From a virus (lineage: Duplodnaviria; Heunggongvirae; Uroviricota; Caudoviricetes), in the IMG/VR virus record IMGVR_UViG_2531839666_000013, positions 1 through 6,443 of that record: a stretch of 6,443 nt of DNA, one strand, 5' to 3'. Below are positions 1-6,443 of this stretch, piece by piece. The notes below the pieces were generated by a model that searched no databases, had not been told where the DNA came from, and saw only the letters and a list, made by a program, of their open reading frames with translations. Made by a program: the position numbers and the translations under genes. The first letter of the stretch is position 1. The number at the start of each line of letters is the position of its first letter.

Positions 1-697
1 CGGCGGGCACTTCTGCCGGTATTATCCGGGAAGGTACGGTTAATCAGCCTGTCACGGCGAAGACCATCCCCCTTGAACAGAAACACCCTGTTGCCCAGTC
101 CGTCACTCCGGCAACGACGCCAGAAACGATAGGCGTTATCTGTCACCCCGGCTTCCCCTCCCGTATCCACAGCCATGGCCATCAGACGCATGCGCACATC
201 CGGATCAGAAGCCAGCGGCCATGTTTTATGGAACACATCCGTCAGCAACAAATCCCAGTCCTCCGGATATGCTGCCGGATCAACCGGCAGACTTTCACCG
301 TTGGGACTGCAGCGTAGTGAATGCCGGATGTTGTAGCGATCAACAATCCAGCGTTCCCCCTGCTCTCCGTATCCGGTGATCTGCACAACAAAACGGCGAT
401 TTTTACCGCCCTGAACGTCAACCGTTGCCTCAATAAAACGCACACCATCCGGCACAGATCTCCGGGGAAACGGCTCGGCACGCTGTTCAAGCAGTTCACT
501 TTTACGCTGTTCCGTGGCTGAACGGGGCAGATAGGGCCGCCCGATATCGGTGTTCACCACCGCTTTCAGGGTCTCTTCACTGCCGGTTCGCTCATACTCT
601 TCTTCTGCCGCCAGCAGCTTAAAAATCAGTTGTTCCCAGGTCTGAAACGCCGCAGCCGGCCCCTCCATCCAGAAACTTGCTATTCTGGAATTTCGGG
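1..697 (-). CDS. A: Terminase large subunit (lambda gpA family), C-terminal portion; in a different frame from the N-terminal ORF, 3' end beyond window start
   Basis: Minus-strand frame with codons ending at 678, 675 ... 3 translates without stops as ...ASFWMEGPAAAFQTWEQLIFKLLAAEEEYERTGSEETLKAVVNTDIGRPY...VDVQGGKNRRFVVQITGYGEQGERWIVDRYNI...AVDTGGEAGVTDNAYRFWRRC.... From memory this is collinear with the lambda gpA region after the CPHCG motif (SPFTTWVQIV...FVNTTLGETWE...IDSQLDRYEMRVWGWG...). It carries no Met start because it continues the 680..1669 ORF after a frame change near 695-699. Confidence 0.75.
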
Positions 698-1669
698 GGT
701 TCCGGTGATACTGCCATCCACCGCTGCCCGTTCGCCTTCCCGCAGCCAGATCCCCTGGTTATTCAGTTCACGCTTCTGTTCCGGAGCAATCAGCCCGCGA
801 CAATGCGGACACATCAGACGGGCCGCCTGCCCGGCAGCCACAAAATCAGGGTTATTCCGGTAACCGGTCATGTTATCCATCACCGGCTGAAAATATTCCC
901 CGCAGTGCGGACACGGCCAGTACCACCGGCGGCGGTCTCCCCTGTTATACAGTGACAGGATCCCCGTTGTTGGCGGTGCCTCATGTGCGCCACCACAACG
1001 CCATTTGGTGTCAGTGATATCCCGCCCCGGTGAACTCTCAACCAGGGTCATCCCCGAAGACATAAAGGTGGTGGTACGCTTTGATGCCAGGGTGAAGGCA
1101 TCCCCTTCCCCGTCCACGTTTTCAGGGAAACGGTCATAATCCGTCAGCGCCACACGACGGTAATCCGAAGAGGAAAATACGGTGATCGACGGCCAGCCAA
1201 TTTTCAGGAATGAGCCGTCAAGAAACATTTTGTCGTGGACGTTGTTGTCATTACGGGAGGGGCTGAGGCGTTTGCAGACCTCCGGGCTGTGGCGAAACGT
1301 CCTGGAAAGACGCGTTCTGGAATGCTCACGCGCCTTCGTCTCGGTCATCTGCACCACCAGCATGTCCGCCGGATCACAGATGATGCCGTACACAATCCAG
1401 CCATCAATCAGCCCTTCGGTTTTCCCGGTTCGCGCAGGTCCGACAAACACCACCGCGTCATATTCACGGGCTGATAATGTATTAATGGGGTCTATCATAT
1501 AGGGCGTCAGCGATGACTCCCACGGACCGGAAGTATTGGCTCCCCGTGGTACCCGCATATAACGCCTGATGGCTTCCGCTACTGGTAACCGGCCAGGTGG
1601 GCGAAACAGCGAGGCCACTTCGCGCCAGATATCGGATGCGCGGCTATGGCTCTCGTTCACCTGATTCAC
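680..1669 (-). CDS. A: Terminase large subunit (lambda gpA family), N-terminal ATPase portion; ends at a premature TAG caused by an apparent 1-nt deletion
   Basis: 329-aa ORF with a P-loop (VVFVGPARTGKTEGL) and the gpA-like motifs SLFRPPG and WYWPCPHCGEYF...LMCPHCRGLI...GIWLREGE, matching lambda gpA SLFRPEP and FHVACPHCGEEQY...GIWTRDG. GTG start at 1669 with GAGG upstream, overlapping the stop of the upstream small-subunit gene. Only about half the expected gpA length before the stop at 680-682. Confidence 0.88.
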   Translation of the reverse strand: MNQVNESHSRASDIWREVASLFRPPGRLPVAEAIRRYMRVPRGANTSGPWESSLTPYMIDPINTLSAREYDAVVFVGPARTGKTEGLIDGWIVYGIICDPADMLVVQMTETKAREHSRTRLSRTFRHSPEVCKRLSPSRNDNNVHDKMFLDGSFLKIGWPSITVFSSSDYRRVALTDYDRFPENVDGEGDAFTLASKRTTTFMSSGMTLVESSPGRDITDTKWRCGGAHEAPPTTGILSLYNRGDRRRWYWPCPHCGEYFQPVMDNMTGYRNNPDFVAAGQAARLMCPHCRGLIAPEQKRELNNQGIWLREGERAAVDGSITGTPEIPE

Positions 1670-2142
1670 ATATCGGCCTCATCACAACAGTCAATGACTG
1701 CCTTTTCCAGTGTGTCGCGGATCTCATCAACCACAATCTGTACTTCATTCAGTTGTGATGCAGTCCACCCCCTGTCCCTCTCCAGCCGGTCAGGCCAGGT
1801 TTCCAGTACCTGAACTATCGCTTTCACCACGACAGAAAAGGACCGCCTGACATCACTGACTGGCACAAGCTGAACAGTTTCATGCTGAAATTTAAGACGC
1901 TCGCGCTCGGACTGATACCATGCCTTACGAGCGTGAGGATCCATATCCTCATCTTCGGAAGATGGTGGTTTTTCCAGCAACGAAGTTATCAAATCCGTCA
2001 GGAGATACAGTTTTTTCTTTTCATTACTGCCTGGTGCAAGAGGAACATCCGCCATTCTGGCGGCAACAGTCTGCCGGTGCAGACCTGAAAGGGCTGCCAG
2101 TTGATTAATATTTAACTTCATATTTTTCAGCTCGCCGTCCAT
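1666..2142 (-). CDS. nu1: Terminase small subunit (lambda Nu1-like, N-terminal HTH DNA-binding domain)
   Basis: 158-aa ORF; N-terminus MKLNINQLAALSGLHRQTVAARMADVPLAPG resembles lambda Nu1 MEVNKKQLADIFGASIRTIQNWQEQGMPVLRG. Sits immediately upstream of and overlapping the large-subunit start (ATGTGA / GTG). GGAGGG lies 6 nt upstream of the ATG at 2142; an alternative start is ATG 2121 (MKLNIN). Confidence 0.85.
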   Translation of the reverse strand: MDGELKNMKLNINQLAALSGLHRQTVAARMADVPLAPGSNEKKKLYLLTDLITSLLEKPPSSEDEDMDPHARKAWYQSERERLKFQHETVQLVPVSDVRRSFSVVVKAIVQVLETWPDRLERDRGWTASQLNEVQIVVDEIRDTLEKAVIDCCDEADM

Positions 2143-2319
2143 TTACATCCCTCCACATAAACCGCAGAACAGAAGTGACTCTGTTTTTTTGTAAAGAAAT
2201 GCCGCCATATAAAGATGTCGAACAAAAAACAACCACAATCATCATCTTTTTAATACTAACAGCATTAAAAACAACAAGTTACCATCATGATGATGATGAC
2301 GATAAAATCACAAAAATGC

Positions 2320-2350
2320 GCCTTTTTCCGCGCCGCCCGCCCCGTGTTCA
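2320..2350 (-). other. Candidate cos site (cosN-like GC-rich element) with an AT-rich cosB-like region between it and nu1
   Basis: Minus-strand ACGGGGCGGGCGGCGCGG (plus 2328..2344 is ccgcgccgcccgccccg) resembles the lambda cosN region ACG|GGGCGGCGACCT|CGCGGG and lies about 190 nt upstream of the nu1 start, the same spacing as in lambda. The intervening 2143..2327 is AT-rich with repeated GATGATGA/TCATCATC blocks and GTTGTTTTT copies. Exact nick positions cannot be derived from sequence alone. Confidence 0.35.
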
Positions 2351-2601
2351 GGCCCACCCCACCAGGAGGACCCGCAAAATGATAATGGTTATCATTTGCA
2401 ATGTAGTCCGGTTTCTTCCACCATCGCACCGGACCAGCGACCATGAGGGGACAACGCCGCGCTCCGTTAACGCGGTAAACCCCGGTGTGTATCGTTTTTG
2501 ATTATCCCCGCACACTCGCGCAGAGGAGTCTCCCTGTCGGGCTGCGGTCTCTGTTAATACGGGAATACGGCGACAATACCGCGCATGGATAATAAGGTCG
2601 C

Positions 2602-2826
2602 TCAACACACTGGCTGTAATGCAGCGGATACCATGCGGCATTTAGCGGCATTCATCGTACACTCAACGGTTAGCTCTTCATTCGTGGCATTCACCTGAAA
2701 GGTCCGGGAGTGTAATTGCGTACATTTACCACTGAACGAACCTTCAACAAGAACACGACCACGCTGCAAAATACGGAACGGAATTGTTCCCTGAAAAGGT
2801 TCTACGGTTACCAGTAATTTCTTCAT
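2602..2826 (-). CDS. Hypothetical small protein (74 aa) between Rz and cos
   Basis: ATG at 2826 with GGAG 6 nt upstream, starting 24 nt after the Rz stop; MKKLLVTVEPFQGTIPFRILQRGRVLVEGSF.... The ORF track extends it to a TTG at 2844 (80 aa). No recognisable family, signal peptide or lipobox. Confidence 0.4.
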   Translation of the reverse strand: MKKLLVTVEPFQGTIPFRILQRGRVLVEGSFSGKCTQLHSRTFQVNATNEELTVECTMNAAKCRMVSAALQPVC

Positions 2827-2849
2827 GCATTCTCCGGATAACAAAAATA

Positions 2850-3323
2850 CTAGTTAATACACTGAGTGCGGATATATTCCTTCGCCCCTTCCAGCTGCTT
2901 CTGCATTGTCATCAACCGTTCTCTGAGGATGAAATAATCCCGTTCAGCGGTGTCTGCCAGTCGGGGGCCGGTTGCATTATCCACGCCGGAGGTGCCGGTG
3001 GCTTCACGCACTGTACCGGGGCAGGTGGCGTTGATCCGCAGGCGCTTACGACCAGCGGCAACATCAGCACGCAGAGTTTCATTTTCAGCTCTCGCATCGG
3101 CTAATTCCCTCGAGTATTTTGCATCGAGCGCAGCAACATCGCGCTGGCGCACCTGCATATCAGTAATGGTTGCGTTTGCCAGCTCCAGCTCTCTGGCTTT
3201 TTTATCGCGCTGCGCTTTGTAGGTGATGGCGTTATCGCGGTAATGATTCAGCCCCAGACTAAGCACACCACAGACCACCAGCAGAATAACGGTAAACGCG
3301 GAAAGCATTCGGTTTATGCTCAC
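2850..3323 (-). CDS. Rz: Rz i-spanin (inner-membrane spanin subunit)
   Basis: 157-aa product is near-collinear with lambda Rz: N-terminal TM segment then [58 protein letters not shown]...[29 protein letters not shown] start at 3323 overlaps the TGA of the upstream small gene. Confidence 0.92.
2912..3097 (-). CDS. Rz1: Rz1 o-spanin lipoprotein, embedded in the +1 frame of Rz
   Basis: 61-aa product [61 protein letters not shown] closely matches lambda Rz1 (MLKLKMMLCV...[27 protein letters not shown]). Lipobox LVVSAC, proline-rich, wholly inside Rz. Confidence 0.88.
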
Positions 3324-3451
3324 CCCAGCAGCCCCGACGAAGATAACATCATCCAGCCCATGGAAAGAAAAAGAGCAACCAGCATTAGTGAAAATGAAAT
3401 GCCGACGATTACACAGAGGATCTTCGCCAGCATTGTGAGTTTGTCTGACAT
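3320..3451 (-). CDS. Small hydrophobic membrane peptide (43 aa), unknown function
   Basis: ATG at 3451 preceded by a strong SD AGGGAGGA 7 nt upstream; product [43 protein letters not shown] is a single predicted TM helix. Its TGA stop overlaps the Rz GTG start (GTGA). Below the ORF-track size cut-off as an ATG-initiated ORF; the track shows a longer alternative-start version (3320..3541). Confidence 0.45.
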
Positions 3452-3465
3452 GTTTAATCCTCCCT

Positions 3466-3648
3466 TCACGATTTCAACGCAATGACCAGTTTTGCCAGCC
3501 CATACAGCATCGGAGACACAGCGATACCGACCGCCACCCACTTAATAGCAAAAGCCAGTGCTCTGCTGATGTCATCAGTTACTGGCGCTTTCAGTTCAAG
3601 GCCGTTTTTCATAGTCAACCTCAACAGAATTCGTTTATACTTTTCCAT
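3466..3648 (-). CDS. Small membrane protein (60 aa, C-terminal TM helix), unknown function
   Basis: ATG at 3648 ([60 protein letters not shown]) with AGGGAG 5 nt upstream. The track ORF starts further up at a GTG (3681) inside the terminator stem, which is less plausible. Followed 14 nt later by the next small gene. Confidence 0.45.
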
Positions 3649-3681
3649 GTTCTCCCTTGCCTTATCCAAGGTCAGAAACAC

Positions 3682-3720
3682 AAAACCCCGCTTGCTGCCA
3701 ACAAACGGGGTTTTTACTTT
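3682..3720. terminator. Rho-independent terminator-like hairpin between the endolysin and the small membrane-peptide genes (possibly bidirectional)
   Basis: Plus strand aaaaccccg-[15 nt loop]-cggggttttt followed by acttttatt: a 9-bp stem with a CCCCG/CGGGG core flanked by an A-run on one side and a T-run on the other. Confidence 0.4.
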
Positions 3721-3804
3721 TATTCACTTAGGTTTTGCCAGTTCGCAGGATTTCGTGTTATCCACCCGCGTTGGCCAACGTCATTTTTCAGCAAAATATT
3801 CTGC

Positions 3805-4338
3805 TTATCTGTCGATTCCCCAGCACGCCAGCGCACTCTCCTGGTCGCGACGGGATACCTGACCGTAGCAATTATTTGAGCGGATACGGCAGTCTCTGCC
3901 ACCGTCCTTAATCCACCAGCGAATCGCTTCACACGCTCCCCTGCGATCGCCTGCATTAATTCGTTTATAAAACGTCGACGGGAAACACTTACCGGGGCCA
4001 ATGTTATACGGGCAGAATGACGCAATACCCGCTTTCTGGGGTTCAGTCAGTGGCACTTTGATGTTTTTCTCCACCCATGCCAGCGCCTTATCACGCTCAA
4101 TGGCGTTAACCCGGTCGCATTTCCCCTTCGACAGCTTCATGCCAGGAATCACAGGCTTACCATCCACCCGGGTGGCTCCACGGCAGATGGTCCAGATACC
4201 CGCACCATCACGGTATGCCGTGGTGTGGTTACCTTCTTTTTCATCCAGAAACTGGTCGAGGATTTCAGGCGCAGAAGCCCCTGCGGCAATCAGCGCCAGA
4301 ACAGCAGCTGACAGGCCGTATTTGATTTTTGCGTTCAT
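3805..4338 (-). CDS. R: SAR endolysin (phage lysozyme, glycoside hydrolase family 24, R21-like)
   Basis: 177-aa product with an N-terminal Gly/Ala-rich signal-anchor-release segment (YGLSAAVLALIAAGASA) followed by EGNHTTAYRDGAGIWTICRG, which matches the E-x8-D-x5-T catalytic arrangement of phage 21 R ([20 protein letters not shown]). Pairs functionally with the pinholin upstream. Confidence 0.92.
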   Translation of the reverse strand: MNAKIKYGLSAAVLALIAAGASAPEILDQFLDEKEGNHTTAYRDGAGIWTICRGATRVDGKPVIPGMKLSKGKCDRVNAIERDKALAWVEKNIKVPLTEPQKAGIASFCPYNIGPGKCFPSTFYKRINAGDRRGACEAIRWWIKDGGRDCRIRSNNCYGQVSRRDQESALACWGIDR

Positions 4339-4374
4339 GGATATATTAAATATTCAGCCGCTGTCCCTGGCCCA

Positions 4375-4563
4375 CTAAATACGCACTTTAAGATAAGTCA
4401 GCCCCGGCTGGATCCAGTTATCAGGCTCAGTCTTAAAGGGTGGAGTATTGAAATCACGAAGAACGGTCTCCCGCACAACTGCATCCTTGTCAGCACCACT
4501 GGCCAGCGCTTCAATCTCAGCAGCTACCTGAAGATATCCCATGCAACGACCAATACGCTTCAT
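4375..4563 (-). CDS. Hypothetical protein (62 aa), second gene of a two-gene cargo module
   Basis: ATG at 4563-4561 overlaps the TGA of the upstream 265-aa gene (ATGA), with AGGGG 5 nt upstream; product [62 protein letters not shown]. No family recognised. Confidence 0.5.
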   Translation of the reverse strand: MKRIGRCMGYLQVAAEIEALASGADKDAVVRETVLRDFNTPPFKTEPDNWIQPGLTYLKVRI

Positions 4564-5360
4564 CAGCCCCTGTTTTTATTGTTCTTCAGGTAATCAATGG
4601 CAAATTCAATGAGCATCTCACAGTGCTGGTGCGATGGCGGTGTTACTTTTCCATTTTCTGATATGGTGATTTTCCCGTCATCACCGGATACAACAAAGGA
4701 TGGCCGGTTACACTCCCGTTCCTGGTTTTTGTCCGACACAGGCACAGTAAAATCACTTTCATGCCCGTTTTTACGACAGTCCTCGCCACGTACCGCAGCA
4801 AATACCGACAAGGCATACTCCTTTGCTCTCGCTTCATAGTCGCTGAATGTTGTTTTCGGATCGTAGTCTTCCCTGTACATAACCGACAGAACTTCCTCAT
4901 GATCAATATGAACACTGACCACGCTGCCTATTCTTTTGGTCAGCACAAGACGAGAATCTTCCCCGACTTTCACTCCTGGTGTCACACGTGCCGGAAGCTC
5001 CACATTAACCATCGCGCTCTGCACATCATCAGGCGCATTTTTTACCGGTTCGTTGACCTTTTCACGCCCCGGGTAAGTGGCGATTTTTTCCGGCATTGTC
5101 CATGAAGAAATATTCTGAAAGCCATATCGCGCAGTCCCTTCGCGTAATCCGAGAGCCGCATCCATGAAAAACTGCTTCGCCTGTTTTTTCGCCTCAGCTT
5201 CGTAAAACTCCAGCGTGGCACCTTCAGTACGGTCAAGACTAATCGCCACATATGGCGACAACAACGACGGCTGCCCGGCAATTACCAGTGCCACAGTAAC
5301 AGTTATCTTATCCGGGTAATGATTTATCCCTTTTACAACCAGTTCATATTTTTTATTCAT
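4563..5360 (-). CDS. Hypothetical protein (265 aa), cargo gene between pinholin and endolysin
   Basis: ATG at 5360 ([18 protein letters not shown]...) preceded by GGGGAG. Long stop-free frame to TGA at 4563-4565 with protein-like composition. In the ORF track it appears fused in frame to the holin as a 355-aa ORF (4563..5630), but the holin part is clearly a separate gene. One hydrophobic stretch ([22 protein letters not shown]) near the N-terminus; no motif I can assign. Confidence 0.7.
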
Positions 5361-5364
5361 CGCT

Positions 5365-5578
5365 TTACTCTCCCCGGGCGCCTTACGACGGTCTTCTTTA
5401 ATCTTGAAATACAGGTTCGTCAGGTACGTCAGCAGACCAAACAGCAGACTCCCCAGCACGCCTATTGCCGCCCACTGAGACGGGGAAACCCTGTCCAGCA
5501 ACTGCAGGAACCAGTAGCCCGTTCCACCGCTGACGTGGTGTATGACACACCTGTTGTGAATTTTTCCATCTGGTACAT
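5365..5578 (-). pseudogene. S: Class II pinholin (phage 21 S21-like) with dual-start motif; reading frame broken twice by apparent 1-nt deletions
   Basis: Frame B from ATG 5578 gives [17 protein letters not shown] (S21: MKSMDKISTGIAYGTSA); frame A then gives [50 protein letters not shown] (S21: [47 protein letters not shown]). Restoring one base near 5372-5381 recreates ...GE-TAA at 5365-5367, as in S21. It may equally be intact in reality if the deletions are sequencing errors. Confidence 0.8.
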
Positions 5579-5652
5579 ACCCGTCTCCGCAATCCGGAAG
5601 CTCACAACAATATAAAGACCACCGGCACACACCGATGGTCCCTTGCGCATGC

Positions 5653-5898
5653 TTACATCATCATGTCGCTGTCAGGTGTGGGGTCACCGCCATCTGAAGC
5701 ACTCCCCTCACCCGCGATACCTTCCGGCTCCGGAACTGCCGGTGCGCCCAGCAGTTCATCCAGAATGGCATCCACTTCTGCATCAAGACGCGCCTCGAGG
5801 TTCTGGCGGAGTTTCTGTTTCAGTGCGCTCAGGACTTCTTCAGAGCGCAGGACTTCCTTCACTGCCTCTGCAGTGACCAGGGATGTAATTTCTGACAT
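5653..5898 (-). CDS. Small highly acidic protein (81 aa), unknown function
   Basis: [81 protein letters not shown]: about 18 Asp/Glu against 6 Lys/Arg, helical N-terminal half and an acidic low-complexity tail. The track's 139-aa ORF (5653..6072) is the same frame with an implausible N-terminal extension. The RBS is weak. Confidence 0.55.
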
Positions 5899-5938
5899 GG
5901 GATTTTCTCGTCGAAAGGTGTGATTAAGAAAGTTGCAG

Positions 5939-6118
5939 CTAAATGAGCGGCTCTTCGGGTTTGCTTCCGGCTGACTGACTGGCGCTGATTTTCTCTGCGG
6001 CCCTTTTATCAATCTGCCTGCGCCAGAAATCGCGCACTGCCCTGTACCCACCCGAAAGAAGATACAGCACACAGACCGCCGTACAGAAGCACAGCATTAA
6101 CTGGTTCAGAAATGTCAT
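5939..6118 (-). CDS. Small membrane protein (59 aa, N-terminal TM helix), unknown function
   Basis: ATG at 6118 with GGTGAG upstream; MTFLNQLMLCFCTAVCVLYLLSGGYRAVRDFWRRQIDKRAAEKISASQSAGSKPEEPLI; stop TAG at 5939-5941. Just below the ORF-track size cut-off; it overlaps, in another frame, the unlikely extension of the 139-aa ORF. Confidence 0.45.
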   Translation of the reverse strand: MTFLNQLMLCFCTAVCVLYLLSGGYRAVRDFWRRQIDKRAAEKISASQSAGSKPEEPLI

Positions 6119-6204
6119 GGTTTCTCACCGTGATAGTTGACATGATTTACTTATTTTTGTAGAAAAACACCGCAGACTTCGGTGTCATCATGGTCGTTTT
6201 ACCA

Positions 6205-6267
6205 GCCGCCAGCATTCATGTAGTGGACAAAGTTCATCCCTTTCCTTCATTGCTGGCGGCCTTTTTT
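6205..6267 (+). terminator. Hairpin with 10-bp GC-rich stem and T6 tract (plus-strand polarity), directly after the stop of the upstream minus-strand gene
   Basis: Plus gccgccagca (6205..6214) pairs with tgctggcggc (6251..6260), separated by a 36-nt loop, followed by cttttttatc. The T-tract is on the plus strand only; on the minus strand the structure is preceded by an A-run. Confidence 0.3.
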
Positions 6268-6268
6268 A

Positions 6269-6443
6269 TCATGCCGCGGCATCCGCGTTGTTCACTTCCA
6301 CCTTCACACTGTCAATCAGCAACGTATATGTCGCCGCCTTTGATATGTCTGTCAGTTGCAGTTTGTCCGCCGCCCCTGATGCCGGAGATTTCACCAGTGT
6401 GAACGGTGTACCCCGTTCTCATCCAGTACCGGCGTCACCTGAA
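6269..6443 (-). CDS. 3' end of an unidentified upstream gene (partial), frame broken by an apparent 1-nt deletion in a G-run
   Basis: Minus frame c reads ...QVTPVLDENGVHRSHW-stop; the adjacent frame b continues as TPFTLVKSPASGAADKLQLTDISKAATYTLLIDSVKVEVNNADAAA to a stop at 6269-6271. Restoring one G in the GGGG run (plus cccc 6411..6414) joins them into one frame. Identity unknown; its position upstream of the holin would fit a late-gene regulator such as Q, but I cannot confirm that from the sequence. Confidence 0.45.

Follow-up and report, generated by a model that had tools for sequence, protein, structure and literature searches.

Several genes in one fragment of a viral record break frame at short runs of identical bases, which raises the question of whether these breaks are lesions of a decaying prophage or bases lost while the DNA was being read. 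The fragment comprises positions 1 to 6,443 of IMG/VR virus record IMGVR_UViG_2531839666_000013 (hereafter the window, by which we mean the whole analysed stretch of 6443 bases) and, judged by its genes and their order, is the late region of a lambdoid, Stx-phage-like, E. coli-type prophage. An earlier note on this DNA had described four frame disruptions and had set two readings side by side without choosing between them: a lysis- and packaging-defective cryptic prophage that kept its cargo genes intact, or homopolymer under-calling. Comparison with relatives favours under-calling and leaves the cryptic-prophage branch unsupported in the form described. We consider it highly probable that the frame disruptions represent homopolymer under-calling in a multi-copy prophage repeat, not mutations of the organism.

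Seven one-base deletions

A search of the whole window against 5,426 complete E. coli genomes and phage records returned only mosaic matches at 93–96% identity. Closer relatives were found through contigs encoding exactly the window's endolysin, and 151 fetched loci made up the set for an allele census. The nearest relative found, locus L009 (GCA_031799475.1), is 99.75% identical to the window across all 6443 bases, and a second locus, L006 (GCA_000943355.2), aligns at 99.5%. Every gene in both loci is intact, including a holin of 71 amino acids (aa), a DUF1327 protein of 328 aa, a large terminase of 707 aa and a DUF6645 protein of 658 aa. Alignment to intact homologues was one of the checks that the earlier note had asked for, and against L009 it placed seven insertions or deletions (indels) base by base. 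Besides 9 substitutions, the alignment with this relative shows 7 one-base gaps; at every one of them it is the window that lacks the base (0 insertions), and each gap falls inside a run that measures 2–6 bases in the reference. L009 and L006 carry intact alleles at all seven sites. The four disruptions first described are all real, each corresponding to one base missing relative to intact homologues, but that list was incomplete, having missed a fifth frameshift in DUF1327 and two deletions upstream of the holin. Frames are broken by five of the seven deletions (in the large terminase, twice in the holin, in DUF1327 and in the tail of DUF6645), and the other two hit the untranslated spacer that immediately precedes the holin start codon. 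All seven are assigned to the minus strand, which carries every gene of the window according to the open reading frame (ORF) list, homologue annotation, Pfam labels and a Pfam scan of the window products.

The first deletion, at 695–699 (site 699), shortens a plus-strand run from G6 to G5 and frameshifts the large terminase. The coding strand reads C5 where L009 and L006 have C6, and the deletion was thus correctly located from the outset. It falls between the ATPase and nuclease domains (~residue 325), a stop follows at 682–680, and the terminase ORF as read from the window spans 680..1669; residues 1–325 and 325–556 of the L009 large terminase (TerL) are each 100% matched in the window, in two different frames. 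At this run the other loci read G6 in 12 cases, GTGGTG in 1 and G5 in 0. The second deletion, at 4573–4577 (site 4577; plus strand T6 to T5, coding strand A5), splits DUF1327 by creating a TGA at 4565–4563, leaving two pieces at 5360–4563 and 4569–4375. The other loci carry TTTTTT (24), CTTTTT (20), CCTTTT (4) or, once, TTTTT (locus L048), and an uninterrupted 328-aa DUF1327 ORF is present in L001, L005, L006, L008, L009, L013 and L014. The statement that the cargo genes had stayed intact does not hold, with this accessory gene frameshifted as well.

Four deletions surround the holin. At 5379, plus-strand CC is reduced to C (coding strand GCGGCC when intact, GCGCC in the window), which frameshifts the holin C-terminus, takes its TAA (5367–5365) out of the reading frame and lets the holin frame run on into DUF1327 at its ATG (5360). 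The predicted loss of the stop and fusion to the next gene were therefore confirmed, the missing G adjoining the CCC/GGGG runs to which the loss had been ascribed; other loci have CC (119), CA (6) or CG (5) here, and a single base in none. At 5524–5525 (site 5525), plus-strand CCC or CCCC is reduced to CC and the holin shifts frame after residue 18. The coding strand has GG where GGG had rightly been expected, and the other loci read TTCCC (108), TCCCC (31), CCCCC (1) or TTCC (1, locus L120), giving GGG or GGGG at 5525–5524 on the coding strand in 139 of 141. The remaining two, at 5580–5582 (site 5582; C4 to C3) and 5587–5588 (site 5586; C3 to C2), fall in the untranslated spacer and ribosome-binding region 2–10 nucleotides upstream of the holin ATG, where positions 5580–5588 read CCCGTCTCC in the window and CCCCGTCTCCC in relatives, with the full-length allele in 143/143 other loci. 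The seventh deletion, at 6416–6417 (site 6417), reduces plus-strand T3 to T2 (AA on the coding strand) and frameshifts the DUF6645 tail, with TTT in 32/32 other loci. The frame change reported for this upstream partial gene is thus genuine, but the base is missing from the A3/T3 run and not from the G4 run at 6411–6414 to which it had been assigned: the plus-strand C4 run there has the same length in the window and in L009.

Re-adding the seven bases restores open reading frames. The restored large terminase is identical to L009 at 556/556 residues, DUF1327 at 328/328, the holin at 70/71 and the DUF6645 tail at 55/57 (L009 residues 602–658), and the out-of-frame segments show no amino-acid change relative to L009. 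Proteins at the unaffected loci are just as close: the endolysin (177/177), the small terminase, DUF826 and the 60-aa and 74-aa ORFs are 100% identical to L009, and DUF1378 matches at 58/59 residues. The expectation that one base per site would rebuild homologue-like proteins is borne out, at 98.6–100% identity apart from the DUF6645 tail. Because the frames open, and the complete genes and the terminase reach this identity after repair, the frame changes are not chance. Domain searches gave the same picture, with the GpA ATPase (PF05876, 272.7 bits) and GpA nuclease (PF20454, 177.4 bits) domains on one frame in the restored terminase, and with the restored holin matching PF04971, 'Bacteriophage P21 holin S', at 109.8 bits (cut-off 26) over 63/64 profile positions. 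This match needs two bases to be restored, the raw window holin match being split over three frames; the name 'pinholin' used for this gene in the earlier note appears reasonable by homology to the same family. Judged from these matches, the genes are ordinary members of known families (GpA terminase, phage 21-type class II holin and endolysin).

Privacy and direction of the deletions

Deleted alleles are nearly private to the window. Among the fetched loci they occur in 0/13, 1/49, 0/130, 1/141, 0/143 and 0/32 at 695–699, 4573–4577, 5379, 5524–5525, 5580–5588 and 6416–6417, respectively. In the 5,426 complete E. coli genomes there was no 100% match to the holin region among 8,824 places, nor to the terminase region among 752 places. 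Among the matches listed, E. coli holin and terminase segments were longer than the window by exactly its number of deletions; for the terminase region, 201 record bases align to 200 query bases. Exact-pattern scans covered two of the deleted alleles: the terminase G5 allele, looked for in IMG/VR viral contigs, had 0 exact matches, and so did the double deletion upstream of the holin, looked for in IMG/VR, JGI metagenomes and GTDB species representatives. The IMG/VR contigs yielded the intact terminase G6 pattern 7 times and the full-length holin-upstream allele in at least 120 contigs. At the protein level, neither the 355-aa holin-DUF1327 fusion nor the 329-aa truncated terminase had an exact record among ~15 billion proteins. 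No genome or contig in the collections searched has the window's combination of deletions. A 62-aa ORF at 4375–4563, called as a gene in three metagenome contigs, was considered as a possible second instance of the DUF1327 frameshift and rejected; in those contigs it follows another gene, of 123 aa, as a remnant of recombination, and so provides no evidence of the same event.

The indels are also far too numerous for the divergence observed and run in one direction. Between the window and L009 the ratio of gap openings to mismatches is 0.78 (7:9); among the other fetched loci, the 206 pairs with ≥98.5% identity have a median of 0.05. L006 and L009, which are just as close to one another, show 14 mismatches and not a single gap across 6450 bases. 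Over bases 1–5378 the window has zero substitutions relative to L009, yet two frameshifting deletions. When one-base gaps are counted over all close pairs that include the window, the base is missing from the window at 39 and from the other sequence at 2. Seven of seven random bases would fall in runs of at least two with P = 0.005, and six of seven in runs of at least three with P = 1.7e-4. If indels made up 10% of differences, at least 7 among 16 differences would arise with P = 5e-4; at an indel fraction of 0.2 the probability is 0.027 when all 16 differences are considered and 9e-4 when the 10 private differences are.

Gaps at 2375, 2583 and 6261 relative to two further loci, L001 and L002, were first taken as extra deletions. 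They are the same in L009 and L006, and being common to the window and both of these relatives they look like natural polymorphisms that fall outside the seven-deletion pattern. Each is a length difference of one base, and they appear to lie outside the main called genes (intergenic).

Under-calling weighed against mutation

Under the explanation that we prefer, base calling or consensus building would have called seven runs of 2–6 bases one base short each. It is chiefly in repeats that errors of this kind outlast polishing with short reads, and several copies of this region occur per genome: an E. coli genome has 3 places matching the window at the median and 15 at most. The holin segment is its most repeated part, with the 8,824 places noted above spread over 2,435 E. 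coli genomes. The underlying DNA would then be the ordinary, probably intact late region of a lambdoid prophage. In long-read bacterial assemblies, leftover errors are mostly homopolymer indels that cause frameshifts, and after short-read polishing they remain chiefly in repeats (Wick and Holt 2022, PMC8812927); deletion errors have been associated with runs of two to eight bases (Kastor 2025, PMC12007338). The window resembles long-read or flow-based assembly error in its one-base deletions in runs of 2–6 bases, its deletion bias, its frames restored by one base and its multi-copy repeat setting. From the alignments, its pattern appears to fit the homopolymer-length class of assembly error on every defining feature tested, with indels inside runs, a one-sided direction accompanied by a raised indel ratio, and near-private alleles at coding and non-coding sites alike.

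A positive control shows the same one-sided deletion pattern. Locus L024 (GCA_046575805.1, JAVQOD010000001.1, positions 9076–20459) comes from a 5.5-Mb public assembly in which the terminase, portal and capsid genes of the prophage are each called in 2–4 pieces. Over 11.4 kb it lacks one base at 20 places relative to near-identical prophages and has 1 insertion; the deletions are all at C or G (13 in runs of 2–4 and 7 at single bases). Its fragmented genes and one-sided C/G deletions make this look like an unpolished long-read assembly.

The distribution of the hits matters for the opposing view, that the window records genuine pseudogenisation: a cryptic prophage in which real −1 slippage has destroyed the holin, large terminase, DUF1327 and DUF6645, perhaps because the lineage was deficient in mismatch repair or because lysis was selected against. 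With DUF1327 and non-coding DNA also affected, the hits do not single out lysis or packaging, and the proposal of a cryptic prophage defective in those two functions but with its cargo intact is unsupported as it was put forward. Taking the two non-coding deletions, the hit in an accessory gene and the double hit in the holin together, the process appears to have been blind to function. Lesions would moreover be redundant, the holin being hit twice in its gene and twice in its untranslated leader. The complete identity of TerL over 556 aa and of DUF1327 over 328 aa shows no decay after the supposed inactivations, and the window is free of nonsense codons, larger deletions, insertions and insertion sequence (IS) elements. 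Pseudogenisation must also account for 7 indels against only 3 private (9 total) substitutions, which at an indel fraction of 0.1 has P ≤ 5e-4, and for deleted alleles that occur in none of the 5,426 complete genomes nor in the other collections scanned. In-vivo slippage is rare in runs of 2–4 bases, where five of the seven deletions lie. With lesions that relatives do not share and no sign of decay, the pattern fails the tests of an inherited pseudogene. A mutator lineage was considered and judged unlikely on account of the low substitution count.

Known cryptic lambdoid prophages of E. coli and Shigella offer a comparison. Elements of the DLP12, Rac and Qin type share with the window lambdoid late genes with frame disruptions in lysis and packaging functions. 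Their decay is known to take the form of large deletions, IS insertions, gene loss and divergence common to whole lineages. In contrast, the window has a complete gene order, its only lesions are private one-base deletions, and its proteins are 98.6–100% identical to those of an intact relative (55/57 residues in the DUF6645 tail).

Several observations weigh against under-calling and in favour of real mutation. In-vivo replication slippage also prefers homopolymers and is deletion-biased, and a lysogen profits from losing its holin and terminase in particular. A stretch of 210 bp around the holin (5379–5586) holds four of the seven deletions (P = 0.004 for uniform placement), a closer grouping than evenly spread long-read errors would give; this clustering could reflect selection, local relaxation or other biology, or may be explained by the holin segment being the most widely repeated part of the window. 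One deleted allele apiece also occurs in two unrelated IMG/VR contigs that are ~92–93% identical to the window: in L120 (~4982–4984) it is the holin GGG to GG deletion, which stands there as a lone, unpaired indel, and in L048 (minus strand, ~8802) it is the T5 run in a DUF1327 remnant. Single sites can therefore vary elsewhere, and these alleles reflect either recurrent real slippage or recurrent error at the same runs. The record also differs from all relatives beyond homopolymer length, by private substitutions at 5560 (A), 5797 (G) and 6090 (C), where 144, 53 and 50 other loci, respectively, have the other base. The change at 5560 moves a homopolymer boundary (A1T6 to A2T5), converts holin Ile6 to Phe where 144/144 other loci have T, and may belong to the same error class as the deletions. 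The other two, at 5797 (a synonymous change in DUF826) and 6090 (Cys for Tyr in DUF1378), resemble ordinary point differences; the 6090C allele had 0 exact-pattern matches in genome, viral and metagenome contigs, and the exact 59-aa DUF1378 product carrying it was not on record in the protein look-up. Finally, the technical cause is one that we infer from the pattern of the sequence and do not observe. Set against the lines of evidence above, these points leave pseudogenisation very unlikely.

Two narrower forms of the mutational explanation deserve separate mention. All seven deletions could be real and very recent, the product of a burst of −1 slippage (e.g. in a transient mutator) in an otherwise pristine prophage. 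We regard such a burst as distinctly unlikely; if it did occur, the window would be a modestly interesting snapshot of prophage domestication caught at its first step, and the membrane-spanning part of the holin, fused in frame to DUF1327, could be a new membrane-anchored protein. Alternatively, one or two of the deletions (e.g. holin GGG to GG or terminase G6 to G5) may be real and the rest sequencing errors, a mixture encouraged by the two sites whose deleted allele appears once each in unrelated loci and by the plausibility of 6-base runs as targets of in-vivo slippage. However, no site is distinguishable from the others, a single error process covers all seven, and L120 and L048 may carry errors themselves, so that we find a mixture very unlikely.

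A further possibility is that the genes are decoded across the runs by design, through programmed frameshifting or transcriptional slippage. Homopolymers such as these can be slippery, but every homologue examined is single-frame at these sites and a conserved two-frame layout is absent; programmed frameshifting is thus rejected and in practice excluded. Homopolymer under-calling accounts for the pattern best, and for now the prophage is best treated as probably intact.

The late region and its interpretation

Genes of the window are arranged in the order DUF6645, DUF1378, DUF826, S21-type holin, DUF1327, endolysin, Rz/Rz1, DUF1441 small terminase and GpA-type large terminase, all on the minus strand. 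The DUF6645 protein enters the window at 6443, and its C-terminal end occupies 6443–6269 with a stop at 6271–6269 (homologue annotation and Pfam); the full protein is ~650 aa in relatives, and 658 aa in L009 and L006. Five of the nine substitutions relative to L009 sit in the last 130 bases of the window, in this tail (6317–6407); four of them carry alleles present in other loci, the one at 6407 lying outside the census, and the cluster looks more like a recombination patch than point mutation. DUF1378 (6118–5939) and DUF826 (5898–5653) follow. The holin, of class II and phage 21 S-type, occupies 5578–5365 with its ATG at 5578 and its normal TAA at 5367–5365; it is 71 aa when intact and is read in three frames in the window. 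DUF1327 (Pfam PF07041) lies at 5360–4375, with its ATG at 5360–5358 and its stop at 4377–4375, and is 328 aa when intact. In E. coli STEC1585 (NZ_CP129252.1), the corresponding gene of L001 (5684–6670) is annotated in RefSeq as a 225-bp pseudogene ('DUF1327, partial, missing C-terminus') despite an intact 328-aa ORF. The Pfam DUF1327 model covers only the first 75 residues, which may explain why longer members are mis-scored as partial.

The intact endolysin gene (4338–3805; 177 aa, PF00959) has a hydrophobic N-terminus resembling a signal-arrest-release (SAR) segment. In gene order, two small membrane-protein ORFs lie between it and Rz (3323–2850), in which Rz1 is embedded (3097–2912). Downstream are the 74-aa ORF (2826–2602), the DUF1441 small terminase (2142–1666) and the GpA-type large terminase (1669–1), which starts with GTG at 1669, leaves the window at base 1 and is read in two frames with the switch at 699–695. 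Two strong terminator-like hairpins are present on the minus strand, one of 15 pairs at 3714–3682, downstream of the endolysin gene, and one of 13 pairs at 5643–5614, between DUF826 and the holin leader. An Rfam scan of the whole window matched no family.

Once repaired, the lysis genes resemble the phage 21 cassette of S21 pinholin and R21 SAR endolysin. The holin belongs to PF04971, is 71 aa long and begins with MYQM, a dual-start motif with Met codons at residues 1 and 4, three residues apart. The endolysin aligns with PDB entry 3HDE over residues 12–174 (E = 5.6e-17), the N-terminal hydrophobic segment included, an entry which we take to be the structure of the phage 21 (R21) SAR endolysin. 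By analogy, the dual start of the holin and its SAR-endolysin partner would work as they do in phage 21. Unlike the phage 21 cassette, this phage group has the 328-aa DUF1327 gene between holin and endolysin, and the DUF826 and DUF1378 genes upstream of the holin.

The broken frames indicate nothing novel, and the outcome of this analysis is a corrected map of seven suspect bases whose value lies mainly in data hygiene. Taken at face value, the frameshifts would have this prophage scored as cryptic and would let a spurious 355-aa holin-DUF1327 fusion enter databases. A test that needs no reads can guard against this in similar records: comparison with the nearest intact relative, followed by examination of the ratio of indels to substitutions, the direction of the indels, their run context and the privacy of the alleles. 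If the seven missing bases are under-calls, the element should count as a probably inducible lambdoid prophage, a type that in related strains carries Stx.

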